A DNA stretch of 64,000 bases. It comes from Patescibacteria group bacterium. Lineage in GTDB: Bacteria; Bacillota; UBA4882; JAAYXC01. Positions 6,907 to 64,000 of this stretch are shown here, piece by piece. Made by a program: the position numbers and the translations under genes. The stretch lies in the NCBI GenBank assembly GCA_050260175.1, contig JBLNBS010000042.1, forward strand, positions 1,544-65,543, read 5' to 3'. Each line of letters starts with the position of its first letter. The stretch's first letter is position 1. Below the pieces are notes generated by a model that was given only the letters and a program-made list of their open reading frames with translations, was not told the DNA's origin and ran no database searches.

Positions 6907-8325
6907 TCAACAGGACATTTCACGGTCCGACCGGTGATGTAAAGCCATGGCGTGTTCCCATGCGCCAGAGCGAAAACGCAGATAAACAACGGTCGCCCTG
7001 GTATACTGGTCCAGTACCAGGGCGATCCAGGCGCCGTTCAATCCCCAGTGGAAGATGTTGACGAACGCGTAAGCCGCGGCGACTCGAAACCCCCAGATGC
7101 CGATGACGGACGCATAGAGGGGATACATGGTGTCGCCGGCTCCACGGAGCGCCCCGGCCAGAGTGAGCTGTGTGGACTGGCCCGGCTGGGCGAGCGCCAG
7201 GATCTTGAGAATGACGCCGGCCAGAGCCGCGGCGGCCAGGTCGGAGGTGTATAAACGGGCCAAAGGATGCGAAAAGAGAATAAAGATCGCGCCCGTAAAG
7301 CAGGCCGTGCCCATTGCCATTTTGTGGATCGCGCGGGCGTAGCGCCGCGCTTTTTCCGCATCATGCGCGCCAAGGCTCTGACCGACCAGGGTCGTGGCGG
7401 CGACCCCAAAAGCCATGCTGGGCGCAAAAGATATTCCGCTGATGTTCAGGCCGATCTGATGCGCGGCAAAGTTCAGCGTGCCGAGCCCCGACACCGTCCT
7501 GGCAAACAGCATCAGACCGCTTTGCAGCACGAATTGTTCCAGGGCCGCCGGCAGGCCGATGGAGAAAACTTTTTTGACGGTGGGCCAATCAGGACGATAA
7601 TCACCCTTGAAGCGCAGGGCGAGGATGGTCTGGCGCGAGCGAAAGAGTATGTACAGCCCCGCCAGGCAGGCAACGAACCTGGCAAGAGTGGTGGAAGCGG
7701 CGGCGCCCGCCACTCCCCAGCGGGGGAAGCCAAACTTGCCGTAGATTAAGACGTAATTGCCGAAGACGTTCAGGAGGTTGCTGCCCACGTTGTAGAGCAT
7801 CGGCGCCGTGGTCTCCCCGGCGCCCCTCAAGGAGGCGGTAATACCCATCGTCACGGCCTGAAACAGCAGCCCGGCGGCGACAATCTGGAAATAGGCGGTG
7901 GCGTCCTTTACCGTATCCGGCCCCGCACCCATGAACAAGACCACCGGGCGGGCGGCCAGCACCCCCAGCAGGCCGATCGCCGTCCCCAGGATCGCGTTGA
8001 CGACCAGAACCTGGCGGGTGATGGAACGCGCCTTCCTGAGATGGCTGCCCCCGATATTCCAGGCGACGAGCGTGGTCGTGCCGACATTGACCGCGGCGAA
8101 GATGGCCAAAAGCAGCATGAACGGCTGGCCGGTCAGGCCCACGGAGGCGATGGCCGCGGGGCTCAGCCGGCCGACCATGATCATATCGACCATGCCAAAG
8201 AGAGTGGACATGACCAGTTCGACAAAGGCCGGCCAGGTAATGGCCGCGATCTCCCGCCACATGGGATTGAGGCGGGAGCGAGGCGCGCCGGCCTCGCCGA
8301 TCGTGGATGTACCGATGCGTCGCAA
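6907..8325 (-). CDS. MATE family multidrug efflux transporter
   Basis: 472 aa with 12 predicted TM helices and a MATE-type N-terminus (AITWPAFVELVMSTLFGMVDMIMVGRL). Confidence 0.85.
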   Translation of the reverse strand: MRRIGTSTIGEAGAPRSRLNPMWREIAAITWPAFVELVMSTLFGMVDMIMVGRLSPAAIASVGLTGQPFMLLLAIFAAVNVGTTTLVAWNIGGSHLRKARSITRQVLVVNAILGTAIGLLGVLAARPVVLFMGAGPDTVKDATAYFQIVAAGLLFQAVTMGITASLRGAGETTAPMLYNVGSNLLNVFGNYVLIYGKFGFPRWGVAGAAASTTLARFVACLAGLYILFRSRQTILALRFKGDYRPDWPTVKKVFSIGLPAALEQFVLQSGLMLFARTVSGLGTLNFAAHQIGLNISGISFAPSMAFGVAATTLVGQSLGAHDAEKARRYARAIHKMAMGTACFTGAIFILFSHPLARLYTSDLAAAALAGVILKILALAQPGQSTQLTLAGALRGAGDTMYPLYASVIGIWGFRVAAAYAFVNIFHWGLNGAWIALVLDQYTRATVVYLRFRSGAWEHAMALHHRSDREMSC

Positions 8326-8583: not shown

Positions 8584-9252
8584 GTGATGCATGAAAGGGA
8601 GTGCTTGAGGATGAGCTCCGCCAGGGGCGGTGGCCGCGGGAAACGGCCCGAGCGGGCGGCGGGAATCCCGGCCGTTCTTTTACTCTTGACGGTGCTCATC
8701 AGCCCTCTTCATGCCTCCGCCGGGCCCCGTTACGACAAGGAGACGGGCACGATCGTCCTGGCCGAGCCCATGATGGCCGCCCTGCGCAGGTTCAACCCGC
8801 GCTTCAAGCCTTGGGCGCTCAAGGATTACGCGCCGACCATCCTGGAGCGATTCGCCGGGGACGAGGCGCCCGGTCCGCCGTTTGCCGTCATCACCGATGC
8901 CAATCGGGACGGCGCGCCCGATGTCATCCTGGACGGGCATGACGGCGCGAGGTCGCTTTTGCTTGCCGTGGTCTCCGATCGGAGCGCGTACGAGGTGGTG
9001 GTCATCGAGGAAAAGGCGAAGGTCGATCCCGCTGTCCTGGAAAATGAATTCGAGGGGAAAAAGGAGAAGGGATTGGCGGCTTACCTCTGGCCCGTGAACG
9101 ACGACAAGGAGACGGGCGACAGAGTGGAAGTCTTTATCCGCCTGTTTCCGCAGCAGACCAACGCAGCCGGCGAGCTCGTGAATGACGGGGGATTTGTCGA
9201 GTACAGTTACTGGAAAGGCAGGTTCTTCATCTCGGGGGAGTTTGTCGCGTAG
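8584..9252 (+). CDS. hypothetical exported protein
   Basis: Signal-peptide-like stretch PAVLLLLTVLISPLHASA. No recognisable domain. The start is uncertain. Confidence 0.4.
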   Translation: MMHERECLRMSSARGGGRGKRPERAAGIPAVLLLLTVLISPLHASAGPRYDKETGTIVLAEPMMAALRRFNPRFKPWALKDYAPTILERFAGDEAPGPPFAVITDANRDGAPDVILDGHDGARSLLLAVVSDRSAYEVVVIEEKAKVDPAVLENEFEGKKEKGLAAYLWPVNDDKETGDRVEVFIRLFPQQTNAAGELVNDGGFVEYSYWKGRFFISGEFVA

Positions 9253-9338
9253 GAGTACCCTGTCCGACGGTAATGAGAGTGGAAGCCGTGCAGGGAAGAG
9301 AATGGAGGGGTGCCGTCGCAAAACCTACCGTCCCGCCC

Positions 9339-9818
9339 TCATCCCCGCCCGATCTCCAGCCTCATCTTCTGGGCGTAGGCCGTAAATCCCACGCTCCGCC
9401 AGAAGGCCGTCGCTTCCGGATTGGCCAGGTAGACGTGGATGTCCAGGGCGTTGATACCACGGCAGGCGAACCAGTCGCGCATGGCGAAAAAGAGCAGGCG
9501 GCCCAGGCCGTGGCGGCGGCGCGCGGGGTCGACGAAGAGGTCGACGATGTAGCCCAACCTCCCCGGCTCGAGCACCGGGGTGAGCTGCTGGACGAGGCCA
9601 AAGATGAAACCTGCGGGCCGGCCGTCCGCGTAGGCGGCAAAGACGGCCCCCTCCCCGGAGAGGAGCGAGGCCGTGGCCCGCTGCAGCCAAGCCTTTTCTC
9701 CGCCGGCGGCGGGGTGAAAGAATGGAATGAGGGCGGCATGATGCGCCATCCCCTCCCGCCAGAGCGGCAGGAGGGCCGGGAGTCCGGCGGCCGTGACCTC
9801 CCGGATCGCGGCGCGCAT
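9339..9818 (-). CDS. GNAT family N-acetyltransferase
   Basis: GNAT motif region RRHGLGRLLFFAMRDWFACRGINALDIHV. Its start abuts the lepA stop codon (9818/9819), suggesting co-transcription. Confidence 0.7.
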   Translation of the reverse strand: MRAAIREVTAAGLPALLPLWREGMAHHAALIPFFHPAAGGEKAWLQRATASLLSGEGAVFAAYADGRPAGFIFGLVQQLTPVLEPGRLGYIVDLFVDPARRRHGLGRLLFFAMRDWFACRGINALDIHVYLANPEATAFWRSVGFTAYAQKMRLEIGRG

Positions 9819-11618
9819 CTACTCCTCCAGCCGCAGCACGGCCAGGAAGGCCTCCTGCGGCACCTCCACGAGCCCCACCTGTTTCAACCGCTTCTTGCCT
9901 TCCCGCTGTTTCTCCAGGAGCTTGCGCTTGCGCGTGACGTCGCCGCCGTAGCATTTGGCCAGGACGTCCTTGCGCAGGGGCTTGATGGTCTCGCGGGCGA
10001 TGACCCGGCTGCCTATGGCGGCCTGGATCGGGATCTCGAACAGCTGGCGCGGGATCAGCTCTCGCAGGCGGTTGACGAGCGCCTTGCCGCGGGTGTAGGC
10101 CCTCTCCCGGTGGATGACCGCCGAGAGGGCGTCCACCGGCTTGCCGCCGAGGAGAATGTCCAGCTTGACCAGGTCCGCCTCCTCGTGGCCGGCGTACTCG
10201 TAGTCCAGCGAGGCGTAACCGCGGGTGCGCGACTTGAGCTTGTCGTAAAAATCGACCAGGATCTCGGCCAGGGGGAGCGTATAGGTGAGCATGGCGCGGG
10301 CGGCCGAGAGGTAGGTAAGGTCCTCGAAACGCCCCCGCGCCTCCTGGCACAGCTCCATGATCGGGCCGATGTATTCCGCGGGCGCGATGACGGTCGCCTT
10401 GACCACGGGCTCCTCGATGCGCTCGATACGGCCGGCGTCCGGCATCTCGGCCGGATTGCTCACCTCGATCTGCGAGCCGTCCGTGAGGTGGACGCGGTGG
10501 GAGACCCCGGGCGCGGTAAAGATGAGCTCCAGGCCGTACTCACGTTCCAGCCTTTCCTGGACGATCTCCATGTGCAAGAGGCCCAGGAAACCGCAGCGAA
10601 AGCCGAAACCCAGGGCGGCCGAGGTCTCGGGCTCGAACCGCAGCGCCGCGTCGTTGAGCTGCAGCTTGCCCAGGGAATCGCGCAGCCGCTCGTAGTCGTC
10701 GCTGTCCGAGGGGTAGAGCCCCGCGAAGACCATGGACTGGACGCGCCTGTAGCCCGGCAGGGGCTCGGCGGCGGGCGCGGCCGCGGCCGTGACGGTGTCG
10801 CCCACCCTTGTGTCGCGGACGTCCTTGATGCCCGCGATGAGGTAACCCACTTCGCCCGGACCCAGGGAGGCCGCGGGGGTCATCTCCGGGGTAAAGAAGC
10901 CCAGCTCGTCCAGGTCAAAGTCGCGGCCCGAGGCCATGAGCCTGATCTTCATCCCCCGCCGCAGCTCGCCATCGACCACACGGACGTAAGCGATGACCCC
11001 GCGGTAGGGGTCGTAGTGCGAGTCAAAGATCAGGGCCCGCAGGGGGGCGGCGCGCTCGGCGGGCGGCGGCGGCAGGCGGCGTACCACCGCTTCCAGAACC
11101 TCGGCCGTACCGAAGCCCGTCTTGGCGCTGATCGCGATCGTCCCGCCCGGATCCAGACCGGCGACCTCCTCCAGCTCGCGCATGGTCCCCGCCGGATCCG
11201 CGGCGGGCAGGTCGATCTTGTTGATCACGGGGATGATGCGGAGGTCGTGTTCGAGCGCCAGGTAGAGGTTGGCGATGGTCTGGGCCTCGATGCCCTGCGT
11301 GGCGTCGACCACCAGGAGCGCGCCCTCGCAGGCGGCCAGGGAGCGGCTCACCTCGTAGCTGAAATCGACGTGGCCCGGCGTGTCGATGAGGTTCAGGACA
11401 TAGTCCAGCCCGTCCGCGGCGCGGTAGTTGAGGCGGACGGCGCGCAGCTTGATGGTGATCCCCCGCTCGCGCTCGAGATCCATGGAGTCCAGGACCTGGT
11501 CGGTCATGTCGCGGGGCGAGACGGCTCCGGTGGCCTCGAGCAGGCGATCGGCCAAGGTGGACTTGCCGTGGTCGATATGGGCGATGATGGAAAAATTCCT
11601 GATCCTGGACGGATCCAA
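9819..11618 (-). CDS. lepA: elongation factor 4 (LepA)
   Basis: [23 protein letters not shown]-domain, DTPGHVDF, and a C-terminal LepA-specific domain. TTG start at 11618 with AAGGAGGA RBS is preferred over the upstream in-frame start at 11681. Confidence 0.9.
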
Positions 11619-51791: not shown

Positions 51792-52755
51792 CGTCGGCTC
51801 GGTCAGCACGAACCTGGCCGTCCTGGACGAGGACGGCGACCTCGTGCACAAGCTCTACCTGCGCACAAAGGGCGATCCCATCGGCGCGATCAAGGCGGGG
51901 CTCGAGGCCCTCGCCCCGCGCTGCGCCGCTCTGTCCGTGCGGGGGGTGGGCGCCACGGGTAGCGGCAGGCGGCTGGCAGGCGTCATGCTCGGCGCTGATG
52001 TGGTCAAGAACGAGATCACGGCCCACGCCGTGGCGGCGCAGCATGCGGTGCCGGATGTGCGCACGGTCGTGGAGATCGGCGGCCAGGACTCAAAGATCAT
52101 CATCCTGCGCGAGGGGGTGGTGGTCGACTTTGCCATGAACACGGTCTGCGCGGCCGGCACCGGTTCTTTCCTGGATCAGCAGGCGGCCAGACTCGGCATT
52201 CCCATCGAAGAGTTCGGAGGATACGCCCGCCTGAGTACGTCTCCCGTGCGGATCGCGGGGCGCTGCTCGGTCTTTGCCGAATCGGACATGATCCACAAGC
52301 AACAGGTGGGCCACGCGCTGCCCGACATCATCGCCGGCCTCTGCCAGGCCCTGGTGCGCAACTACGAGAACAACGTGGGCAAGGGCAAGGAGATCCTGCC
52401 GCCCGTCGTCTTTCAGGGCGGGGTGGCGGCCAACGCCGGCATCCGGGACGCCCTGAGCCAAGCCCTGGGTTTCCCCATCGTCGTCCCCGAGCACTATGAG
52501 GTCATGGGGGCCATCGGCGCGGCCCTACTGGCGGCCGAGGCGGCCCTCCTGGACCCGGATTCGGGGTCGGCTTTCCGCGGTTTTGGGCTGGCCGGCGAAG
52601 AGGTGCGGACCGCGGGCCGCGAATGCGCGGGCTGCCCCAACCAGTGCGAGATCGTGACCCTCAGCATCGGCGGGGAGGCCGTGGCGGCCTGGGGGGATCG
52701 GTGCGGCAAATGGAGCGGGGCGGGGGCTGGATGCCAGGCGCCGGTATTAGGCTGA
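51766..52755 (+). CDS. BadF/BadG/BcrA/BcrD-type ATPase (CoA-substrate-specific enzyme activase, HgdC-like)
   Basis: FLGVDVGSVSTNLAVLD actin-fold ATPase start. C-terminal CxxC (CAGCPNQC) [4Fe-4S] bridging motif. Confidence 0.7.
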   Translation: MPRCFLGVDVGSVSTNLAVLDEDGDLVHKLYLRTKGDPIGAIKAGLEALAPRCAALSVRGVGATGSGRRLAGVMLGADVVKNEITAHAVAAQHAVPDVRTVVEIGGQDSKIIILREGVVVDFAMNTVCAAGTGSFLDQQAARLGIPIEEFGGYARLSTSPVRIAGRCSVFAESDMIHKQQVGHALPDIIAGLCQALVRNYENNVGKGKEILPPVVFQGGVAANAGIRDALSQALGFPIVVPEHYEVMGAIGAALLAAEAALLDPDSGSAFRGFGLAGEEVRTAGRECAGCPNQCEIVTLSIGGEAVAAWGDRCGKWSGAGAGCQAPVLG

Positions 52756-52766
52756 GAGCTTCGAAT

Positions 52767-52796
52767 TTGACATCCCCTCCAGGCCGGGGTTATAAT
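52767..52796 (+). promoter_or_regulatory. sigma-A-type promoter of vapBC
   Basis: TTGACA at 52767-52772 and TATAAT at 52791-52796 (18-nt spacer), about 40 nt upstream of vapB. Confidence 0.55.
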
Positions 52797-52836
52797 AATC
52801 TTACAATCGTCTTACACGGCAATGGGAGGGGAAAAG

Positions 52837-53088
52837 GTGGTATACACGCGTCTGTCAAGCAAGGGACAGGTCGTGATCCCGGGAAGCATACGATCGGCGC
52901 ATGGCTGGGGTGCCGGGACGGAGCTTGTGGTCGAGGATCGCGGGGATGCAGTCATCCTCCGCGTGGCCCGGCCTTTTCCGCCGACCAGGGTTGACGAGGT
53001 CTGGGGTTGCACGGGTTACGGCGGTCCAAAGCGGACCCTGAAGGAGATGCGGTCGGCCATCGTCAAAGGAGCCCGCGAACGGCGATGA
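52837..53088 (+). CDS. vapB: AbrB/MazE-family antitoxin VapB
   Basis: VVYTRLSSKGQVVIPGSIR swapped-hairpin DNA-binding motif. GTG 52837 after GGGAGGGGAAAAG (ORF track gives ATG 52822). Confidence 0.75.
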   Translation: MVYTRLSSKGQVVIPGSIRSAHGWGAGTELVVEDRGDAVILRVARPFPPTRVDEVWGCTGYGGPKRTLKEMRSAIVKGARERR

Positions 53089-53477
53089 CAGCCGTGGATA
53101 CCAATGTGCTGGTCCGGTTGCTCACCGACGATGACCCGTCCCAGGCGGAACGCGCCGCCCGCCTGTTCCAGGACGGGTCCGTATTTATCGCCAAGACCGT
53201 GCTTTTGGAGACCGAGTGGGTGCTCCGTCATGCCTACGGCTTGAGCCGGGATGTATGCAACGCGGCTTTTGTCAAACTCTTGGGCCTGCCCGGTGTGAGC
53301 GTGGAGGACATGCCTGCGGCCGGTAAGGCCATGGCGTGGTACGCGGCGGGTTTGGATTTCGCCGACGCGCTCCACCTGGCCGCGGCTGGCGGCGCCGAAC
53401 GCTTCGTGACTTTCGACCGGGATTTCGTCAAACGGGCCGCAAAAGTCTCGGCCGATGTGGAAGTGCGGTTGGTATGA
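53085..53477 (+). CDS. vapC: PIN-domain toxin VapC
   Basis: MTAVDTNVLVRLLTDDD N-terminal PIN acidic motif. ATGA start/stop overlap with vapB. Confidence 0.8.
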   Translation: MTAVDTNVLVRLLTDDDPSQAERAARLFQDGSVFIAKTVLLETEWVLRHAYGLSRDVCNAAFVKLLGLPGVSVEDMPAAGKAMAWYAAGLDFADALHLAAAGGAERFVTFDRDFVKRAAKVSADVEVRLV

Positions 53478-53551
53478 TTGATGGACGTGCTCGCGTCCGG
53501 GCCTTCCTCCCTATCCTCCGGAGGGGGCATCTGTTGCGACAAAATCCGGGT

Positions 53552-53935
53552 TTAATTCATCATTCTACATTCATCATTCATCATTGCTCTTAGCAGCAGT
53601 CTCATCCCATCCAAAAAAGCCCTCTCCCCGAGCATCGCCGTCTCCAGGTAATGCGCCGATCCCAGGGCCTCGCTGTATTGGAGGAGCATCCTTTGGCCCT
53701 CCTCGGGCAGCATCTCCCGCAATTGCGCGTAGAGGCGGGAGGCCTTTTCCTGCTGCACATGGTACTCCTTCGGCGCTTGGCTCGTATCAACTCGGTCCAA
53801 GCGGGAGCAGATGAATTCCCTGAGATCGACCATGAAGTCGTCGTCGAAATAGGAACGGTCGCGGGCGAGGAGGGGGGAACGGGATGCGGGGGAAACCGGT
53901 AATTGGTAGAGCACGGTGATCGCGCCCTCTCTCAT
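53552..53935 (-). CDS. hypothetical protein
   Basis: 127-aa ORF with balanced composition. Its 3' end overlaps AT-rich repeat copy 2. Confidence 0.35.
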   Translation of the reverse strand: MREGAITVLYQLPVSPASRSPLLARDRSYFDDDFMVDLREFICSRLDRVDTSQAPKEYHVQQEKASRLYAQLREMLPEEGQRMLLQYSEALGSAHYLETAMLGERAFLDGMRLLLRAMMNDECRMMN

Positions 53936-54017
53936 GTTATTGCTTGGGTGTCTTTAGGTCAATTATAATCAATAAGTTATTGAATGTCAATAGATATACC
54001 CAACCCGTATTGACCCG

Positions 54018-54026
54018 TGGTATAAT
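54018..54026 (+). promoter_or_regulatory. extended -10 promoter element (TGgTATAAT)
   Basis: TGGTATAAT about 22 nt upstream of the RHH gene TTG start. Confidence 0.45.
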
Positions 54027-54047
54027 GCCAGCGGAGGGGGATGGCAG

Positions 54048-54221
54048 TTGGCGGTAGGAGCGGGGAAGAGGAACCAGACCGTGGTGCTGGACAAGGAGGT
54101 ATATGAGGTCGTCAACAATCTGGCCTGGGAGCAGCGGAGGAGCTTTAGCAACATGACCAACATGCTTTTGCGAGAGGTCCTGCAGGCGCGGGGCTTACTG
54201 GCAAAGGACTCTCAAAAATAA
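54048..54221 (+). CDS. ribbon-helix-helix (CopG-like) protein, putative orphan antitoxin/regulator
   Basis: TTG start after GGAGGGGGA. The translation LAVGAGKRNQTVVLDKEVYEVVNNLAWEQRRSFSNMTNMLLREVLQARGLL fits an RHH beta-strand plus two helices. 57 codons, so it fell below the ORF-track threshold. Confidence 0.5.
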   Translation: MAVGAGKRNQTVVLDKEVYEVVNNLAWEQRRSFSNMTNMLLREVLQARGLLAKDSQK

Positions 54222-54966
54222 CAGAGCCCATCTCGAGGATATTTTTTGTACTAACCAGCGAGGAAGTCTTGGTCACGTTACTCATTCTGCATTCTTCATT
54301 TATCATTGCCTTCATCCCGTGAACCGTTTGGCCAGGGAGCATCTTGAGTCCCGCGGCCTTTTGCGCAAGTGGGAACCGAGATCGTAAGCAAATGAGGCCA
54401 ATCGCTTCCAGCCACTCTTTATGTAAGAGAGCGGTGGTATCTCAACGCCAGGATGAGCGGCTGACTCGCGATCCGCCGACTCGTGACCAGCTTTTTTTCG
54501 GGCCGTCATTCTTTGACGGTCTCGTTTGTTACTCTTGACATATGGCGGGAGATTGGCAGGAATCGGGGAGCGGGTGGGCGAATTTTTGGATAGTGATGGC
54601 AATCACATTGGGGCGCCTGAGGCAGCGGTTTCCGTGGCTGGTGAATGTCCGGATGCGAGTGGTGGTGGAATAACGCCTACCGAGGACGCATTGATCGCGT
54701 TGCGCCGTATTCCGGCAGTTAATACTGATGATATTGAGTATTTAGCGAACCCAGCTCTACGCATGACCGATGGTCAAGTAATGGGTGAAGGTCATTTGCA
54801 CATAATACTAAAGACATAGGGTTTCATTCCTCTTCAAAATAGTTGGATAAAGTAAATAGGAAGAAGGTCGGCGGGTTCTGAAGAGGGTTTTAGCATATGT
54901 GGCGAAAATTTAAATACAGTTTATCTTTATCATGTAGAGTATAATCACTGAAGGCGAGGATGACCT

Positions 54967-56826
54967 TTGACCAATCAGCAGATAGGTCAATTTTTCCAAA
55001 CAACGAATGTCAATATCATGGATAATGCTTTTCTCCGTGAACCTCAGATCGGTGGCTATCAGGCAGCATGTGAGCATTTCTCCCGTAGCCGGGCGCATGC
55101 TATTTTGCAGATCCCTGTCGGTTGTGGTAAGACTGGGCTTATGAGTATTTTACCATTTGGTATGGCCGAAGGTCGTGTACTCATAATCGTCCCGAACCTA
55201 GAAATTCGCCGGGGGGTGGCGCATGAACTCGATATCACAAACAATCAATGTTTCTGGAATAAGGCCCATGTTCTTCGCGACTACTCTACTGGTCCCTATC
55301 GTGCAGAGCTCGATAGCGACGCCAATATTCATGATTGTCGAAGAGCGCATTTTGTAATCACAAATATCCACCAATTGGCAAATCGTGTTGACCGATGGTT
55401 GCCAAAATTTGAGGATAACTTTTTTGACCTTATCTTGGTTGACGAAGCTCACCATAATGCTGCAGAAAGTTGGCAACGTGTATTCGAAAGATTTCCTAAT
55501 GCCAAGGTCATAAGTTTAACCGCCACTCCCTTCCGTTCTGATGGACGTCCGGTTGAAGGACAATCAATTTACCGATATTCTTTCGCAGAAGCTATGCGTA
55601 ATGGATATATTAAGCAACTTCGTGTGGCTGATGCGCAACCTGCACAGATATATTTTACTTTTCAAGGTGATGAATATCACCACTCTCTTGAAGAAGTCCT
55701 TGCTCTTCGCGAAGAAGCGTGGTTCCGACTGGGGATTGCACTTTCTCGACCGACAAATGAGACAATTGTAAATTCGAGTCTGGAGTTACTTGATCGGTTA
55801 CGTTCAGCTGGTCGTCATCATCAGATCGTTGCAGCTGCATGTAGTATTAACCATGCACGTGATATAGCCTCTTTATATCGAGAACGTAATTACTCAGCAG
55901 ATGTGATATCTAGTGATATGCGTTCAGAGGAACGGGAGTCGGTTCTTCAACGCCTTAAGTGTAATCAACTCGATTGCATCGTTCAGGTAAACATTCTTGG
56001 TGAAGGATTCGATTGGCCTCAACTTAGCGTTGCGGCTATCTTTCGCCCTTTCCGTAGTCTTGCACCATATATCCAATTCGTCGGCCGAATCATGCGCGTC
56101 CTTGAGCAAAACGACCCATATCATCCAGATAACGAAGGTTGGGTGATTTCGCATATTGGTCTTCAACAGGATGAACGGTGGGAAGATTTCCAACGCTTTG
56201 ATGAGGATGACCAGGAACTCTTCCGGAACATAGCACATGGAAATGATCCTGGTCCGCGTGAAGGAAATGGTTCAGAGCGTCGACGCTTAAAACCAGATAT
56301 GCGGGTTATCAATGAAGTCCTTGATCGCCTTGTAACTCGGGATTTTCTTGATCCTACGGATGCCGGTGCGGTCGATGCCGTCTTAGCAGAAATGCGTCGT
56401 ACGTTAGGTGTAGAACCAGAAGAGATCGGGCTTTCGCGTGAAGAGCTAGCCGGCCGCCTTCTTCAAGCTCGTAGACGCGAGCAAGTCCACCCAAGACCTC
56501 GGCCAGTCCAACCTCAAGACCGTCGCCGTGAGCAACAGCGTCGCCTTGATGAAGCGGCTCGATCTGTAGCCGGTCGGATTCTTGAAGTCTTAGGTCTATC
56601 ACCTTCCGGTGTAGATATTATTAGGCGAATGCCTGAGCTTGCATCAGCCCATAACAACATCGGAGCGGCAATCCGCCTTATGCACCGTAAAGTGAACGAG
56701 AGTATGGGTTTCCAACCAGGCCATCGTCGTGAGCTTGATATTCCAGAACTAGAGCAAGCTCTAGAACATCTTGATGAATATGGGGATGTTTTAGAGGCGG
56801 AACTTCGTCATCAGCTAGGGAGGTAA
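54967..56826 (+). CDS. SF2 DEAH-box helicase (ResIII-type helicase core plus C-terminal helicase domain)
   Basis: Q-motif QIGGYQAACEHF, Walker A VGCGKTG, DEAH box LVDEAHH, motif III SLTATP. AT-rich codon usage. Confidence 0.75.
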   Translation: MTNQQIGQFFQTTNVNIMDNAFLREPQIGGYQAACEHFSRSRAHAILQIPVGCGKTGLMSILPFGMAEGRVLIIVPNLEIRRGVAHELDITNNQCFWNKAHVLRDYSTGPYRAELDSDANIHDCRRAHFVITNIHQLANRVDRWLPKFEDNFFDLILVDEAHHNAAESWQRVFERFPNAKVISLTATPFRSDGRPVEGQSIYRYSFAEAMRNGYIKQLRVADAQPAQIYFTFQGDEYHHSLEEVLALREEAWFRLGIALSRPTNETIVNSSLELLDRLRSAGRHHQIVAAACSINHARDIASLYRERNYSADVISSDMRSEERESVLQRLKCNQLDCIVQVNILGEGFDWPQLSVAAIFRPFRSLAPYIQFVGRIMRVLEQNDPYHPDNEGWVISHIGLQQDERWEDFQRFDEDDQELFRNIAHGNDPGPREGNGSERRRLKPDMRVINEVLDRLVTRDFLDPTDAGAVDAVLAEMRRTLGVEPEEIGLSREELAGRLLQARRREQVHPRPRPVQPQDRRREQQRRLDEAARSVAGRILEVLGLSPSGVDIIRRMPELASAHNNIGAAIRLMHRKVNESMGFQPGHRRELDIPELEQALEHLDEYGDVLEAELRHQLGR

Positions 56827-56830
56827 TTAC

Positions 56831-57085
56831 ATGTCCAGAGGACGTATAAAGAGCATTCTACATACCGCACATATTAGTCAAGCAAGTTTACGAGGGCGAC
56901 ATCGTATTTGCCGTGGAGATAGTAAAAATCATATTATTCCCTTTGGTGGTTGGTACCTTGGCATAAAGGACGGGTTGGAAGAAAAGAGTTACTGTTTAAA
57001 ATGTGCTCGTGCCATCTTGGAAAAAGGACAAATGAAGCTTGATATTCTTATTAAAAATCTCGAAAAAGCTGAACGTAATGCTTAG
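56831..57085 (+). CDS. small zinc-ribbon protein
   Basis: 84 aa with CRGD...CLKC cysteine pairs, 4 nt after the helicase stop. Confidence 0.4.
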   Translation: MSRGRIKSILHTAHISQASLRGRHRICRGDSKNHIIPFGGWYLGIKDGLEEKSYCLKCARAILEKGQMKLDILIKNLEKAERNA

Positions 57086-57191
57086 TAGATTATCAAAATC
57101 TCCAGTTCAATCGATTATTATAACTTTTATTGATATAGGAGATAAAGTACTGCTGGGTTTTGTATGTATCGGAAAGGAGTATTGATGGAAT

Positions 57192-59135
57192 ATGAGTCAA
57201 CAATTGCATCTCTTTCCTGATAGCTCTTTTTCATTTGGTCCGCGCTTTTTGCACGATCACGCAGGCCGCATCATTACTGATCCTCGTATTGCACTTGTTG
57301 AACTTGTTGCAAACTCGTATGATGCTGGTGCTTCACTCATTAAAATTCAATGGCCGGATAACATAGGTGGTATATTTCAAGTTGAAGATAACGGTACAGG
57401 AATGACAATGGATGAATTCAATAAAAGATGGAGGACGCTTTCGTATAGTCGAGTACTAGAACAGGGACCTTATGTTGAATATCCACCTGATGTAAAAGGA
57501 ACGAAACGGATAGCGTTTGGCCAAAATGGAAAAGGAAGATATAGTCCTTTTTGCTTTGCTGATGCATATGAGGTGGAGACCTGGAAAAACGGGAATAGTA
57601 TTGTGGCAAGGGTTGAACTCACTCAAGGTGGTATTGAACCATTTCACTGCGAAATCATAACTGAAGGAACTAGAAAAGGACATGGAACATGCATACGTGC
57701 AGCTATTGATCGTAATCAAATTTCAGTCGCTAGTGTATCTGAAGCAATAGGCTCCAAGTTTTTAGTTGATCCATTCTTTTCTGTTTTTATTAATGAAATT
57801 AAACTTGAACTTTTTTCGCTATCAGGCATCGCAAGTACTTCACTGCAATTGGATCCGTATGGTACTGTAGTAATTCATCAGATTGATGCACAAATGCAAG
57901 ACAGAACAATGTTCTTACGAGGAATTACATGGTGGGTTAACAAGCGAATGGTAGGTATCTCACCATCATGGGATGGATTAGATGGGCGTGGTGCAATTTT
58001 GGACGGGCGGACAGCACTTGCCAAGCGCTGTAGTTTCATTGTGGAAGTAGATTTTCTGAAAGAAGACGTAAAAGATGATTGGACTGGATTTCGTGACACG
58101 CCACGTGTCTTAGCAGTACGTGACACGGTCCGTAACTATGTGATTGAAGCACTCAATAAGCTCCTTGCAGAAAATCGAAGAGAGCGAAAACTTGAAGCAT
58201 TGGCTCAGAACAGAGAAGTCCTTGGCCGTCTTCCTACATTATCAAAACGTTTAGTTGGTCAATTTATTGATGAAGTTCAACAAAGTTGTCCCACCTTATC
58301 CCAAGGTGACTTAGAACGGGCAGTTACGATTTTTACAAAGATGGAAGCAGCTCGGAGTGGCTATGAACTCCTCGAAAAATTAGCCGCTTGTTCCCCAGAT
58401 GATTTGGATACATGGAATAAACTCATGGAAGAATGGACAGCAAGCAATGCAGAGATCATTCTTAGTGAATTAAAACGGCGTCTTGATCTTATTCAGCGTA
58501 TGCAACAACTCGTTAATGTCGCAACAACCGATGAACTTCATGAACTACAACCATTATTTGCCCGTGGTTTATGGATCTTTGGACCAGAATACGAATCAGT
58601 AGAATTTACCTCCAATCGAGCGATGGCAACAATCATCAATAATTATCTTGGGGGTACTTCAAATTCACTTTCCAATCGCCGACCAGATATAGTAGCTCTA
58701 CCTGACAGATCGATTTGTTGCTATACAGCAGATAAATTTGATGATAATGGTGAAGTGGATGGAATTAGAAAGGTTCTCATTGTCGAACTGAAAAAAGGTG
58801 GATTTATACTACGAACTACTGAGCTTCGCCAAGGTGAAGACTACGCTCAAGAATTACAAAAAGCTAATCTTGTAACAAAGAGCACAGAGATTATCGTATA
58901 TGTTTTGGGAGCTCGGTTGTCTGACGACGCAACCGAAGAACGTACAATTGGATCATCAATAAAGATTATACCCATGACCTATGATACAATATTGAAACGT
59001 GCGCACGCTCGGACGTTTAACTTACAGCGAAAATTACAGATTATCGAACCTGCTCCTACACATGATAGAGATGTTGAAGATATCATATCAGTACCTTTAT
59101 TTAAAAGTGTAACGATTGATAAAGCTATGACATAA
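57192..59135 (+). CDS. GHKL (HATPase_c, MORC/MutL-like) ATPase domain protein with uncharacterised C-terminal half
   Basis: Bergerat-fold motifs ELVANSYDAGAS (N-box) and VEDNGTGMTMDEF (G1 box) within the first 120 aa. Confidence 0.65.
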   Translation: MSQQLHLFPDSSFSFGPRFLHDHAGRIITDPRIALVELVANSYDAGASLIKIQWPDNIGGIFQVEDNGTGMTMDEFNKRWRTLSYSRVLEQGPYVEYPPDVKGTKRIAFGQNGKGRYSPFCFADAYEVETWKNGNSIVARVELTQGGIEPFHCEIITEGTRKGHGTCIRAAIDRNQISVASVSEAIGSKFLVDPFFSVFINEIKLELFSLSGIASTSLQLDPYGTVVIHQIDAQMQDRTMFLRGITWWVNKRMVGISPSWDGLDGRGAILDGRTALAKRCSFIVEVDFLKEDVKDDWTGFRDTPRVLAVRDTVRNYVIEALNKLLAENRRERKLEALAQNREVLGRLPTLSKRLVGQFIDEVQQSCPTLSQGDLERAVTIFTKMEAARSGYELLEKLAACSPDDLDTWNKLMEEWTASNAEIILSELKRRLDLIQRMQQLVNVATTDELHELQPLFARGLWIFGPEYESVEFTSNRAMATIINNYLGGTSNSLSNRRPDIVALPDRSICCYTADKFDDNGEVDGIRKVLIVELKKGGFILRTTELRQGEDYAQELQKANLVTKSTEIIVYVLGARLSDDATEERTIGSSIKIIPMTYDTILKRAHARTFNLQRKLQIIEPAPTHDRDVEDIISVPLFKSVTIDKAMT

Positions 59136-59253
59136 GTTTAAATAACGAACACTTTTTTTGATAATTAAGTAGATTATTCAAATTCTTGGCAGGATGTTCC
59201 CTCTAGGTGGCAAATTCTTGGCCCTATTCCCCAAAGACAGGAGATGCCGTTCC

Positions 59254-61893
59254 ATGCCTCCCAAACGCCGCCAGGATACGACCGCCGAGGCCTACGATCA
59301 CAAAGACCAGGAGGCCCTCCTCCGCCCGGACGTCGGCCTCCAAGCCCAGTTCAAGAAGAAGAAACTTCCGGTGAAGTACCGCTACGACCCTTCGCTCGAT
59401 CCAGAATTAAGCTGGGACATCAATGCCGATCGGGAGCGGGCCGAAGTCCTGATCGAGCAGATACGCACGGCCAGCACGCTTGAGGAGGCCAAGGCCGCCG
59501 CTGAGCAGCTCAAGCGAATGTCCCAGCCCTTCCTCAACTGGGCCGGTAAAGCCGAGCGGTCCGAATTCACCGTGCCCACGCTGCCGCTCTTTGTCCATGA
59601 GCGGCTCTCGACCAAGGCTATTCTGGAATCCGTCCGCACCAGGAAACGCATGATCGGTCTTTTTGCCGATCCCGAGCTGGCTATCGCCGATCGTGCGCTA
59701 AAGGCCTACGAGCACAAGACCGGCTGGGTCAACCGCCTCATTCTGGGCGACAGTCTTGTCGTCATGAATAGCCTCTTGCAGTATGAGGGTCTCGGCGGCC
59801 AGGTCCAGATGATCTATATGGACCCGCCGTATGGCGTAAAATTTGGGTCGAACTTCCAGCCATTCATTCGCCGGCGCGACGTCAAACACAACGATGACGA
59901 GGATATGACCCGGGAGCCGGAGATGGTGCAGGCGTATAGGGATACTTGGGAGCTTGGGCTACATTCATATCTTACGTATCTGCGTGACCGTTTGTGGCTT
60001 TGCCGTGAACTATTATCGCCAACAGGTTCAATATTCATCCAAATCAGTGACGATAACTTGCATATGATCCGTTGCTTGATGGATGAGGTTTTTGGTGCAG
60101 GTAATTATCTTAACACAATTGCCTTTGTAAAAACGAGTGGTGTTACCACTAAATTTTTACCTAGTCGGATTGACTTTTTAGTTTGGTATGCTCGAAATAA
60201 AGAGTATTCAAAATATCATCAAATTTACGTTACAAAATCAACAGAGATGGGTACAGCAGAAAACTACAACTGGATCGAGTTACCTGATGGTACAAGACGT
60301 GGTTTGACCGCAGCAGAAAGACGTGACCGAACTTTAGTTCCAAACAATGCAAAGATTTATAAACCAGATAACATAACTAGTCAGGGTAATCCAATTTTTG
60401 ACTTTGAATATCAGGGAAATGTTTATCGTCAGGCATGGAAAACAACCCCCGAAGGACTAAGAAGGCTTGCATCTGCAATGCGCCTACATGTAGCAAAAAA
60501 TTCACTGCAATATGTCAGGTATCTTACAGATTTTCCGTGTGTCCCAGCAACACAGCTTTGGGAAGATACTGGCACTGGTAGTTTCACTGATGATAAGATT
60601 TATGTAGTACAAACAGGGACAAAAGCCATTGAGCGGTGCATCCTCATGAGCACCGATCCCGGTGACCTCGTCCTCGACCCCACCTGCGGTAGCGGCACGA
60701 CGGCCTACGTTGCGGAGCAGTGGGGCCGGCGGTGGATCACCATCGACACGAGCCGCGTGCCGATCGCCCTGGCCAAGCAGAGGTTGTTGACCGCGACCTA
60801 CGACTATTACGAGCTGCGGGATGAGAAGGCCGGAGTCGCGGGCGGGTTCAAATACGAGCGTAAGCAGAACAAGAAAGGCGAGGAAATAGGCGGCATTGTG
60901 CCGCATATCACCCTAAAAAGCATCGCCAACAACGAGCCGCCGGAGGAAGAGGTCCTGGTGGACCGGCCCAACATCGTACCGGGCGTGGTGCGGGTGACCG
61001 GGCCCTTCGTTGTTGAGGCGACCATCCCGACACCGGTGGATATCGATGCCGACGGCGTCGAGGATTCCGGCGTCCCGGCCGGTGACCACTACCAGCGGAT
61101 GTTGGAGGTGCTGCGGCGTTCGCCCGTGCTGCGGTTGCCGGGCAACCGAACCGTCACATTCAAGAACGTCCGCCAGCCCGCGAAATCGCTCAACCTGCAC
61201 GCCGAGGCGATAATCGAGGGAAACGGCGAAAAGCCGGTGGCCTTCCTCTTTGGCCCCGAGAGCGGCGCGGTCAGTGAAAAGATGATCTATGAGGCGGCGC
61301 GCGAGGCCCATGGCAAGAGCTATGCCCATCTCTACATCATCGGCTTTGCCTGCCAGGATGCGGCTACCCGCTTGATCCGCGAATGTGAAAGCGTGATGGG
61401 TATCCCGGCCACTTTTGTCGCGGCCACCATGGACCTCGCCATGCACGACCTGCTCAAGACGAGCCGCGCTAGCCAGGTTTTTAGCGTCACGGGCGCGCCC
61501 GAGATCAAACTGCTCAAGCTCAAGCAAAAGGGGGCCAACGGCGAGGATCTCTATCAGGTCAAGCTGTTGGGCCTGGACGTCTTTGATCCCGTCACCATGG
61601 AGACCGATCACCTCCAGGGCGACGACGTTCCCGCGTGGTTCCTCGACACGGACTACAATGAGCTGTCCTTCCTGGTCGGCCAGGCGTTCTTTCCGCGCAC
61701 CTCTGCGTGGGACAGCCTCAAGCGGGAATTGAAGGGCGTTTACCTCGACAGCGTCTGGGAGCACCTGGCCGGCGATACGAGCGAGCCCTTTACCGCGGGC
61801 GACAACGGCAAGATCGCCGTCAAGGTCATCGACGAGCGGGGCAACGAACTGATGGTGGTCAAGCCCCTGGCCGAGGCGGAGGTGGAGGCATGA
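59254..61893 (+). CDS. mod: type III restriction-modification Mod subunit (beta-class N6-adenine/N4-cytosine DNA methyltransferase)
   Basis: Motif IV IYMDPPYG (around 59815) precedes motif I DPTCGSGTT (around 60680), with a variable middle region between them. ATG 59254 after AGGAG. The stop overlaps the res start. Confidence 0.8.
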   Translation: MPPKRRQDTTAEAYDHKDQEALLRPDVGLQAQFKKKKLPVKYRYDPSLDPELSWDINADRERAEVLIEQIRTASTLEEAKAAAEQLKRMSQPFLNWAGKAERSEFTVPTLPLFVHERLSTKAILESVRTRKRMIGLFADPELAIADRALKAYEHKTGWVNRLILGDSLVVMNSLLQYEGLGGQVQMIYMDPPYGVKFGSNFQPFIRRRDVKHNDDEDMTREPEMVQAYRDTWELGLHSYLTYLRDRLWLCRELLSPTGSIFIQISDDNLHMIRCLMDEVFGAGNYLNTIAFVKTSGVTTKFLPSRIDFLVWYARNKEYSKYHQIYVTKSTEMGTAENYNWIELPDGTRRGLTAAERRDRTLVPNNAKIYKPDNITSQGNPIFDFEYQGNVYRQAWKTTPEGLRRLASAMRLHVAKNSLQYVRYLTDFPCVPATQLWEDTGTGSFTDDKIYVVQTGTKAIERCILMSTDPGDLVLDPTCGSGTTAYVAEQWGRRWITIDTSRVPIALAKQRLLTATYDYYELRDEKAGVAGGFKYERKQNKKGEEIGGIVPHITLKSIANNEPPEEEVLVDRPNIVPGVVRVTGPFVVEATIPTPVDIDADGVEDSGVPAGDHYQRMLEVLRRSPVLRLPGNRTVTFKNVRQPAKSLNLHAEAIIEGNGEKPVAFLFGPESGAVSEKMIYEAAREAHGKSYAHLYIIGFACQDAATRLIRECESVMGIPATFVAATMDLAMHDLLKTSRASQVFSVTGAPEIKLLKLKQKGANGEDLYQVKLLGLDVFDPVTMETDHLQGDDVPAWFLDTDYNELSFLVGQAFFPRTSAWDSLKRELKGVYLDSVWEHLAGDTSEPFTAGDNGKIAVKVIDERGNELMVVKPLAEAEVEA

Positions 61894-64000
61894 GCCAGCT
61901 CCACGAGGTCGATCGGCCGATCATCAACAGCCCTTATGAGGAACCGACACAGTATTATGAGATCGTGCCCGGCGAGCCGCCAGTGCTCAAGCAGGGCCGC
62001 CGGCCGGCTTTTTACTACTATCGCCCCCCCGCGCGCAAACCGGGCCAGGATCCCACGGGTGATCCCGGCAGGCGCGAGGAATTGGCGCTCGTCAACGAAT
62101 TGCGCCGGCGGGTCAAGGAATGGCGGGAAAAGGACTACCCCGGCGTGACCAGGACCACGCTGGATCTACTAAACTACTGGCAAAAGCCTGATAGGGAGCT
62201 CGATCGGCGCCTCTTCTTTTGCCAGCGCGAGGCGGCGGAGACGGTCATCTTCTTAGTCGAGGCCAGGGCGGATCTCCGCCAGGGCCTGGAGATCCCCCGC
62301 GACGAGCCAGGCGATGACGGCAAGGCCAAGGGTTACACCGGTTTCGTCCGCTACGCCTGCAAGATGGCGACCGGCAGCGGCAAGACCACGGTCATGGCCA
62401 TGCTCGCGGCTTGGAGCATCCTGAACAAGATAAACAGTCGCAATGACGGGCGTTTCTCCGACGTGGTCCTCGTCCTCTGCCCCAACGTGACCATCCGCGA
62501 ACGCCTGGGTGAACTCGACCCGAACCTGGGCGAAAAGAGCATCTACCGTACGCGCGACCTGGTGCCGCCGGGCCTCATGGAACAGCTCCGCAAGGGTTTC
62601 GTCGTCGTCACCAACTGGCACGTACTCGAGCCTCGGGCCGGCAACCAGGTGAACGGCGAGAGCGCGCGCGTGGTCGATAAAGGACCGGAATCGGATACCG
62701 CCCTCGTCCAGCGAGTCATGGGCAGGCACGTCGGTGGCAAGCAAAACATCCTGGTCATGAACGATGAGGCCCATCATGCCTATCGACTCGGCAAGGGGGC
62801 AAACGGCGAAGACGAGGAGATGGAGGAAGAAGAGGCGGGGGAGGACGACGAGGAGCGCAAGGAGGCCACGGTCTGGATCGGCGGTCTGGACAAGATTCAC
62901 AAGGTGCGCGGGATCAATCTCTGCGTGGATCTCTCCGCCACCCCTTACTACCTCAACAACACGGGCAACGATCCCGGCCGGCCCTTCCCTTGGGTCGTCT
63001 CGGATTTCGGCCTCATCGACGCCATCGAGAGCGGCCTGGTCAAGATCCCGCAACTGCCGGTCCAGGACAGCACGGGCGAGATTATCCCGGCCTATTTCAA
63101 CGTCTGGAAATGGATCCTCGAAGAAAAGCTGACCAGCGCGGAAAGAGGCGGGCGCCGCGGCCAGATCAGTTCAAAGGCCGTGCTCAAATACGCCCAGGTG
63201 CCGATCGCGCAGTTGGCCGGGCTCTGGCGCGAGACCTTCAGGGAATGGCAGAAGGATCCGATGATCCACCCGACGCCGCCGGTCTTTATCATCGTCTGCC
63301 GGGACACGACCCTGGCCAAGGCGGTCTACAACTGGATCGCGAACGGCGAGGGCGAGACGGACAAGCTCATCGAGGAGTTCTTGAATCGCGACGGTAAACG
63401 GTACACGGAGAGAGTGGACTCAAAGGTGGCGGCGGAGATCTCATCCGGCACGACGAAGAGCAACGAGACAAAAAGGCTCCGCTTCGTGCTCGAAACCGTC
63501 GGCCGGACCACCTGGCCGGGCAACAAGCCGCCTGATGAATGGGTGAAACTCGCCGAGGAACTGGGCGTGGATCCTTTCATACCGCCCGGGCGCGACGTGC
63601 GCTGCATCATCTCCGTGGCTATGCTCACCGAGGGCTGGGACGCCCGCACGGTCACGCACATCGTGGGCCTACGGCCCTTTGAGTCGCAGCTCCTCTGCGA
63701 GCAGGTGGTGGGCCGCGGCCTGCGGCGGTCGCAATACCAGGATCTGACCATCGAGGAGGAGGCCAAGGTCTACGGCGTGCCGTTCGAGATCATCCCGTTC
63801 AAGGCGCCGCCGCGTGGTCCCGTGTCCCCGCCGCCCAAGACTCATCATGTCTATGCAATGCCCGAACGGGCGCATCTGGAGATCATCTTCCCTCGGGTGG
63901 AGAGTTACGCCTATGCCATCAGGAGCCGCATCACCGTTGACTGGGAGTGCGTGCCGCGGCTGATCATGGACCCGCTTGACGTCCCGCCCGATGTGCTGGT
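61890..64000 (+). CDS. res: type III restriction enzyme Res subunit (helicase-nuclease), partial, continues beyond window end
   Basis: ATGA overlap with mod. Walker A MATGSGKTTVMA, DEAH box VMNDEAHHA, and an open frame to position 64000. It is not in the ORF track because no stop lies in the window. Confidence 0.75.
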   Translation, partial: MSQLHEVDRPIINSPYEEPTQYYEIVPGEPPVLKQGRRPAFYYYRPPARKPGQDPTGDPGRREELALVNELRRRVKEWREKDYPGVTRTTLDLLNYWQKPDRELDRRLFFCQREAAETVIFLVEARADLRQGLEIPRDEPGDDGKAKGYTGFVRYACKMATGSGKTTVMAMLAAWSILNKINSRNDGRFSDVVLVLCPNVTIRERLGELDPNLGEKSIYRTRDLVPPGLMEQLRKGFVVVTNWHVLEPRAGNQVNGESARVVDKGPESDTALVQRVMGRHVGGKQNILVMNDEAHHAYRLGKGANGEDEEMEEEEAGEDDEERKEATVWIGGLDKIHKVRGINLCVDLSATPYYLNNTGNDPGRPFPWVVSDFGLIDAIESGLVKIPQLPVQDSTGEIIPAYFNVWKWILEEKLTSAERGGRRGQISSKAVLKYAQVPIAQLAGLWRETFREWQKDPMIHPTPPVFIIVCRDTTLAKAVYNWIANGEGETDKLIEEFLNRDGKRYTERVDSKVAAEISSGTTKSNETKRLRFVLETVGRTTWPGNKPPDEWVKLAEELGVDPFIPPGRDVRCIISVAMLTEGWDARTVTHIVGLRPFESQLLCEQVVGRGLRRSQYQDLTIEEEAKVYGVPFEIIPFKAPPRGPVSPPPKTHHVYAMPERAHLEIIFPRVESYAYAIRSRITVDWECVPRLIMDPLDVPPDVL

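Follow-up and report, generated by a model that had tools for sequence, protein, structure and literature searches.

A low-GC central cassette in the mod gene of a Type III-like restriction-modification operon and its probable exchange between diverged alleles

Does the middle of a DNA methyltransferase gene share its origin with the two ends that enclose it? The question is raised by mod, the first gene of a predicted Type III-like restriction-modification operon (mod-res) lying at the end of a 64,000-nucleotide stretch, hereafter the window, of contig JBLNBS010000042.1, which was assembled from a metagenome and deposited under the label Patescibacteria group bacterium. An initial annotation of this DNA had described an AT-rich segment between catalytic motifs IV and I of mod, flanked on both sides by GC-rich sequence, and had read it as a target-recognition domain (TRD) swapped in from a low-GC donor, possibly along with an AT-rich island situated immediately upstream. 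Our analysis points to a replacement en bloc of the central 696 bases of mod by the matching piece of a diverged, lower-GC mod allele, a reading to which we assign a probability of about 0.8.

Composition and similarity breaks within mod

The GC content of the region, determined in 200-nt windows, falls from 0.53–0.62 (59200–59999) to 0.345–0.43 (60000–60599) and returns to 0.60–0.66 from position 60600 onward. A two-breakpoint maximum-likelihood fit on the third-codon-position GC (GC3) of mod, controlled with 100 permutations, delimited the interval 59935–60630, with a GC3 of 0.293 inside (232 codons) against 0.813 outside and a log-likelihood ratio of 101.7, compared to a maximum of 13.3 among the permutations. 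The block had previously been placed at 59935–60625 with roughly 40% GC, and both figures held on recounting (total GC of 0.394), so that the suggestion that the dip might lose significance in such a recount was not borne out; the 65–70% GC attributed to its flanks was overstated, since these reach 0.60 and 0.63. For comparison, the lowest 691-nt window within positions 1–54000 has a GC content of 0.534 (mean 0.639, standard deviation 0.046), and the 38 probable genes found elsewhere in the window, which served as the host reference, have a mean GC3 of 0.814 (standard deviation 0.053, minimum 0.694). Moreover, the relative synonymous codon usage (RSCU) of the cassette is anticorrelated with that of its own flanks (r −0.54) and with that of res (r −0.53), a gene with a GC3 of 0.825. 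The composition of the cassette is foreign to the genome and to the rest of mod.

The positions given earlier for motif IV (DPPY) and motif I were correct (Table 1). The equation of the block with the TRD was only partly so: the TRD is included, but the cassette is bigger, as it starts in the invariant EPEMVQAYRDTWELGLH motif and also holds catalytic motifs V–VIII. Residues of Mod are numbered here in two schemes, one counting from 59194, the start of the mechanical open reading frame (899-aa numbering), and the other from the ATG at 59254 (879-aa numbering).

The break in composition is matched by a break in similarity. The closest relative of the deposited window Mod (P0001) is P0002, a protein encoded on two independently assembled contigs, L001 and L002, and its identity to the window Mod is 94% in the N-terminal part, 93% immediately after the cassette and 93% in the C-terminal part, whereas within the cassette it drops to 47–48% at the protein level (48% over aa 250–470) and to approximately 51–54% at the DNA level. 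The DNA homology to L001 and L002 (87%) is confined to 59239–59993 (755 nt) and 60520–64000, with none between these segments. At the left edge, the DNA identity to P0002 falls from 0.93 to 0.58–0.71 at about 59930–59945, and GC3 drops in both sequences from about 59930; residues 225–266 are identical in the two proteins (the alignment starting at aa 225), yet the codons differ at aa 246–266. At the right edge, the DNA identity to L002 is back at 0.78–0.91 from aa 480 (~60631), while GC3, at 0.47 in the interval starting at aa 470, climbs to 0.73 and then 0.87 from aa 480. The edges defined by composition and by identity thus agree within a few codons.

Comparison block by block gave discordant best matches for the cassette and for the flanks, as expected from the earlier proposal of allelic shuffling of the specificity domain. 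The nearest relatives of the cassette are P0033 (74% protein identity) and P0043, P0028, P0005, P0014, P0034 and P0071 (70–72%), proteins whose N-terminal and far C-terminal flanks are just 50–67% identical to the window Mod. Because P0002 has flanks that are 93–94% identical around a centre that is 47–48% identical, and because the nearest relatives of the cassette have distant flanks, the central block appears to have been exchanged by recombination within conserved methyltransferase motifs, that is, by allelic cassette shuffling. Ten further pairs of loci with similar backbones and different cassettes show breaks at aa 296–306 and 465–486. The right crossover zone is therefore common across the family, and the left crossover that distinguishes the window from P0002 lies about 50 codons further upstream, in the near-invariant EPEMVQAYRDTWELGLH.

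A mosaic of this kind could also be produced by a metagenome assembler joining low-GC mod reads into a GC-rich mod gene, a concern prompted by the metagenome-assembled source contig and by the location of both junctions within conserved motifs. We regard such a chimera as highly improbable, considering that a Logan contig (L164), which a second assembler produced from the same sample (SRR24035586), is 100% identical to the window over 54502–61073 (6572 nt), both cassette junctions included, and that two in-frame switches would be required. Additionally, L001 and L002 were assembled at coverages of 4.5x and 204x and carry the same mosaic architecture, and mosaicism is general in the family, as described below.

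Cassette exchange across the Mod family and the putative source of the cassette

The family to which the window Mod belongs has at least 8000 homologues, with hosts among Nitrospira, Acidobacteriota, Planctomycetota, Chloroflexota, Proteobacteria, Cyanobacteria, Actinomycetota, Bacteroidota and Methanoperedens, as well as on a Planktothrix plasmid. Pair identities were computed for 119 full-length homologues. Of the 673 pairs whose flanks were at least 85% identical, 593 had cassettes less than 60% identical, and the 119 proteins fell into 45 cassette clusters (defined at 60% identity), which indicates that mosaicism is the rule in this Mod family.

An AT shift of the cassette is also widespread. 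Among 146 distinct genes of the family, aligned by codon, GC3 was lower in the cassette than in its own flanks in 138 (Wilcoxon p 4e-25), with a mean dip of 0.15–0.23 in each of the host-GC classes, all 14 genes with a flank GC3 below 0.55 included; in Planktothrix, for example, the cassette has a GC3 of 0.19 against 0.35. The family-average trough spans aa 285–485 and has sharp edges at the recombination breakpoints. Conservation-dependent codon bias was rejected as its cause, since cassette columns conserved at 90% or more are shifted by −0.18 GC3, while flank columns conserved at less than 40% are shifted by −0.02. The scenario considered in the initial annotation as contrary to a swap, in which the TRDs of related genomes are uniformly AT-rich and have a phylogeny concordant with the flanks, was consequently found to be partly true with respect to composition and false with respect to concordance.

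These observations give some ground for a standing, region-specific synonymous AT bias, according to which the window cassette would be ancestral and the swap would have occurred only in the P0002 lineage; the dip is found in nearly all family genes, including that of Planktothrix, its trough is independent of residue conservation, and the difference between the window and P0002 could have arisen in either lineage. A standing bias nevertheless seems quite unlikely to account for the cassette, because the dip amounts to 0.51 in the window compared to the 0.15–0.23 of the family. In a regression over 121 loci, the window (0.51) and L001 (0.63) had the two most extreme dips, with residual z values of −3.1 and −4.1, respectively. 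A cassette long resident at the host GC3 of 0.81 would be expected at about 0.63, the mean cassette GC3 for the host bin of the window. Besides, stably co-inherited cassettes have almost no dip: the median was 0.05 at concordant loci (n = 13) against 0.24 at discordant loci (n = 14; Mann-Whitney p 0.0005, for loci that are phylogenetically non-independent). The coincidence of the composition and identity edges within a few codons is likewise difficult to reconcile with a standing bias. In L003 and L004, the same cassette type (73–74% identity) occurs at a GC3 of 0.70 in a GC-rich backbone, and therefore AT-richness is not intrinsic to this type of TRD.

Under the replacement that we favour, the mod-res operon would be compositionally at home in a GC-rich genome, and the piece corresponding to 59935–60630, comprising motifs V–VIII and the TRD, would have been supplied by a diverged mod allele whose background was of much lower GC. 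Two crossovers, through homologous or homeologous recombination, would have taken place in the DNA of near-invariant motifs, the left one in EPEMVQAYRDTWELGLH and the right one in the stretch immediately preceding TDPGDLVLDPTCGSG. The product would be an intact, in-frame chimeric Mod in which every family-invariant residue is kept, and which would methylate, and direct Res to, a DNA sequence other than that of its closest relatives, altering restriction by the cell. The source of the cassette may have been a genome or element of about 40–45% GC and the import fairly recent; the GC3 of the cassette (0.29) is close to the mean cassette GC3 (0.28) of family members with a backbone GC3 below 0.55.

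Several points weigh against this replacement or narrow what can be claimed for it. The latest swap may have taken place in either the window or the P0002 lineage, or in both, because P0002 (L001) too has a cassette that is AT-rich, unameliorated and bounded at the same positions as that of the window. The AT shift seen in 138 of the 146 genes, low-GC hosts included, implies that part of the dip is not specific to a low-GC donor, and what argues for a source of much lower GC is solely the amount, about 0.33 GC3, by which the dip exceeds the family norm. The methylation target is predicted, and presumed, to differ from that of the closest relatives. Finally, neither a donor nor a near-identical cassette was found in protein, metagenome, genome, plasmid, phage and fetched-locus searches, with best identities of 74% at the protein level and 66% at the DNA level. 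With the cassette alone as protein query, the matches were limited to short proteins (up to 385 aa) that were no more than 64% identical across the greater part of the query; the best values were 74% among metagenome contigs, 62–63% among genome contigs (metagenome-assembled Anaerolineales and Gemmata) and 63% among plasmids (Planktothrix agardhii plasmid p3), the phage scan gave distant methylases alone (25%), and blastn against all fetched loci reached 66%. The low-GC donor proposed in the initial annotation accordingly keeps the foreign GC3 of 0.29 in its favour and is still a donor that we infer, given the negative searches and the moderate AT shift of the whole family.

A broader interpretation, which we offer tentatively and consider rather doubtful, is that the cassette (aa ~300–485) belongs to a pool that circulates horizontally and has an AT-shifted synonymous composition of its own, extending across many bacterial phyla and some archaea, in which the size of the dip would act as a clock of specificity switching. 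If this were true, the most recent switches observed would be those of the window and P0002, and an AT bias that depends neither on host GC nor on residue conservation would need its own explanation, for which transit through AT-rich mobile DNA or a lack of GC-biased gene conversion inside non-homologous cassettes are candidate causes. In metagenomes, switches of specificity could also be detected, and approximately dated, from the family-wide synonymous AT shift and its link to discordant cassettes.

Predicted function of mod-res and comparison with known systems

The true start of mod is almost certainly the ATG at 59254, because the deposited protein has 879 aa and the homology with L002 begins at a GGAG ribosome-binding site (59240), 14 nt before this codon. 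The protein matches PF01555 (N6/N4 DNA methyltransferase; E 2.2e-34, aa 204–527) and has the permuted motif order of the beta class, with motif IV followed by the TRD and then motif I. Moreover, the PADLOC model MTase_III PDLC03632 scored 524 bits, and phmmer retrieved the 6k0w Mod at 1e-16 and the EcoP15I Mod (4zcf) at 3.4e-12, both aligning on either side of the centre (residues 142–318 and 456–487 in the 879-aa numbering; in the 899-aa numbering the first alignment ends at aa 338 and the second begins at aa 476). The AlphaFold model of Mod was poor overall, with a mean predicted local distance difference test (pLDDT) score of 62 and a predicted template modelling score (pTM) of 0.42, and served solely to rank the fold matches and to judge local confidence; within the cassette, the 10-residue blocks had mostly pLDDT values of 75–91, with one block at 60. 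The top Foldseek matches of the model, with low template modelling scores, were 4zcf, 6k0w and 7dsu (Mbo45V Mod), the three solved Type III Mods. The chimeric Mod is probably functional, since the window protein retains all family-invariant residues inside the cassette.

The product of res, as cut by the window end, matched NCBIfam NF046055 (BPTD_3080 family restriction endonuclease) with 800.4 bits for a cutoff of 800 (E 2.2e-240, model positions 2–708 of 970), and the Planktothrix homologue is named BPTD_3080 family restriction endonuclease in RefSeq. The Res sequence has GSGKT and DEAH motifs of the superfamily 2 (SF2) helicase type. The full-length Res of L001 matched Pfam ResIII at 1.5e-06; a Pfam nuclease domain was not reported for it, and no dedicated search for a PD-(D/E)xK nuclease was made. 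The beta-class Mod, its relation to the solved Type III Mods and the adjacent SF2-type Res speak for Type III membership, and mod-res is predicted to be a Type III-like restriction-modification operon composed of Mod and a BPTD_3080-family Res. The biochemistry of this Mod/BPTD_3080-Res family was not found in the literature searched.

The resemblance to EcoP15I (Mod2Res, PDB 4zcf) includes a beta-class Mod in which motif IV precedes and motif I follows the TRD, sequence matches on both sides of the TRD, and a downstream res, here translationally coupled and encoding SF2 helicase motifs. On the other hand, identity in the fold alignments is about 14–17%, the window Mod has extra N- and C-terminal regions, and the window Res belongs to a distinct NCBIfam family (BPTD_3080), its match to Pfam ResIII being weak.

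Replacement of recognition domains has been described in other Type III systems. Alleles of the DNA recognition domain (DRD) of modA and modB are known in Neisseria and Haemophilus influenzae (PMC3311624; PMC1557822, Bayliss et al., 2006), and the modA recognition domain of Neisseria and Haemophilus is acquired en bloc, the GC content of the modA12 domain being lower than that of the 5′ and 3′ regions, which was taken as a sign of horizontal transfer (PMC3311624, Gawthorne et al., 2012). As in modA and modB, where some domains come from other species, the ends of mod are conserved, its centre is hypervariable and the recognition domain is replaced en bloc through homologous recombination. The differences are that modA and modB are phase-variable through simple repeats, a tract absent here; that their Mods are smaller and belong to EcoP15I-like systems of host-adapted pathogens, while here an 879-aa protein, of which about 370 aa form a C-terminal extension, is paired with a BPTD_3080 Res in environmental bacteria and archaea; and that the present case has a far larger GC3 contrast and an exchanged block that includes catalytic motifs V–VIII. 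In Helicobacter pylori, the TRDs of Type III mod genes move via recombination at the DNA of conserved motifs (Furuta and Kobayashi, 2012, as cited in PMC3983042, Furuta et al., 2014), and the breakpoints found here also lie in conserved methyltransferase motifs. There, the movement stays inside a single, naturally competent species that has many mod loci, whereas here the exchange extends over many phyla and the window holds no second mod or silent cassette.

The mechanism of cassette swapping and its low-GC signature are hence already published for modA and Helicobacter pylori, and the locus reveals no new mechanism. What it adds is a Mod family with a BPTD_3080-type Res in environmental lineages, a contrast of this magnitude and a quantification across the whole family, and it would represent a clean, strongly contrasted case of specificity change by cassette swap and not by swap of the whole gene. 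Annotation and prediction of specificity in this Mod family should be based on the cassette and not on whole-gene similarity.

Two other routes to a change in specificity were examined and rejected. Tandem Repeats Finder, applied to 54000–64000, detected no repeat tract in mod, the only arrays being 57289–57309 and 62808–62855, and phase variation of the phasevarion type was dismissed because no simple repeat able to shift the frame occurs within or just upstream of the gene. The second array lies in res, where an imperfect, in-frame tandem repeat of 18 nt (2.7 copies, 76% matches) encodes an acidic, Glu/Asp-rich stretch. Similarly, no meaningful direct or inverted repeats, silent cassettes or second mod copy were found around or within mod (52000–64000), and specificity switching from silent cassettes or by a shufflon-like system was dismissed for want of partial copies or flanking inverted repeats near the gene.

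The upstream island and other features of the locus

Table 1. Positions in the window of mod and its parts, of res and of the upstream island
Feature	Position	Strand	Description
mod	59254–61893	+	beta-class N6-adenine DNA methyltransferase, 879 aa from the ATG at 59254; mechanical open reading frame from 59194
mod 5′ backbone segment	59254–59934	+	host-like composition; holds motif IV DPPY; inside the 755-nt L001/L002 match
Motif IV DPPY	59821–59832	+	aa 210–213
Left crossover zone	59914–59991	+	within the near-invariant motif EPEMVQAYRDTWELGLHSYLTYLRDR
AT-rich exchange cassette	59935–60630	+	696 nt, 232 codons, aa 248–479 (899-aa numbering); from the GC3 fit
Catalytic motifs V–VIII within the cassette	59935 to ~60205	+	aa 248–338 (899-aa numbering), aligning to EcoP15I Mod
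TRD proper	~60206–60615	+	second part of the cassette
Right crossover zone	60601–60681	+	YVVQT to TDPGDLVLDP, just 5′ of motif I
mod 3′ backbone segment	60631–61893	+	motifs X and I–III, then a C-terminal extension (~370 aa); GC 0.63
Motif I DPTCGSGTT	60676–60702	+	aa 495–503
res	61890–64000	+	ATG overlaps the mod stop (ATGA, 61890–61893); cut by the window end after 703 codons (of ~974)
AT-rich island	54700–59238	+	GC 0.33–0.48, GC3 0.28–0.36; neighbour, probably separate from mod-res
SF2 helicase	54967–56826	+	Pfam ResIII plus Helicase_C
84-aa open reading frame (orf84)	56831–57085	+	no family match
GHKL/MORC-like ATPase	57192–59135	+	HATPase_c_3; weak similarity to BbrUII/HgiDII-type restriction enzymes

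The AT-rich island ends sharply about 15 nt before the start of mod, at the point where the homology with L002 begins. As the initial annotation had suggested, a single low-GC element with its own mod allele could have brought the island (54.7–59.2 kb) and the cassette jointly; their GC3 values are alike (0.28–0.36 for the island genes and 0.29 for the cassette), the RSCU of the cassette correlates with that of the GHKL gene (r 0.75) and of the helicase (r 0.59), and merely some 700 nt lie between the two. We consider this joint import unlikely, as the roughly 680 nt of mod DNA that separate the island from the cassette (59254–59934) are host-like and fall within the 87% match to L001 and L002, so that at least two recombination tracts would be needed, and as the RSCU similarity is largely an effect of GC3. 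Furthermore, 160 related mod loci contain no homologue of any of the three island genes, and the GHKL gene has homologues (72–76% identity) that stand alone among unrelated or defence-like genes, without the helicase or mod. On these last two grounds, a functional link of the island genes to the Mod family was rejected, and the island is probably a separate defence module. The P0002 locus has, at the same upstream position, a different AT-rich cargo encoding an OLD-like AAA_15/AAA_21/DUF2813 ATPase, together with its different cassette. The simplest reading is that of a defence island with two slots that vary independently, the first directly upstream of mod and the second within the gene.

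The first 54 kb of the window have 60–70% GC, and the nearest Mod backbones are those of Terriglobales, Nitrospira and comparable lineages; the Patescibacteria label of the source contig may result from mis-binning. The window contains no tRNA gene to mark an integration site, and promoter and terminator scans returned counts close to the shuffled expectation. In the transition zone before the island, where GC passes from about 0.7 to about 0.5, a PIN-domain protein is encoded at 53007–53477, a probable toxin of a toxin-antitoxin pair.

The accessory genes around the mod-res pair are variable across L001/L002, L167 and L163. An AAA_21/AAA_15 ATPase gene is inserted between mod and res in L167 (3418–5070), while the Planktothrix plasmid (L163) has a hypothetical gene between them (9016–10080) and an integrase just upstream. 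In L002, three copies (962–1186, 7994–8222 and 8875–9104, one of them inverted) occur of an element of about 225–230 nt with the terminal inverted repeats GTTGAGATCTCCACATAC ... GTATGTGGAGATTTCAAC, which is absent at these sites in L001 although the assemblies are otherwise 99.98–100% identical. The inverted-repeat end of this element is not present in the window, where a search gave one match with 3 mismatches and 3 of 100 shuffles likewise gave a match. The copies look like a miniature inverted-repeat transposable element (MITE), that is, a small non-autonomous mobile element, polymorphic between the two assemblies, and one of them interrupts the OLD-like ATPase gene upstream of mod.

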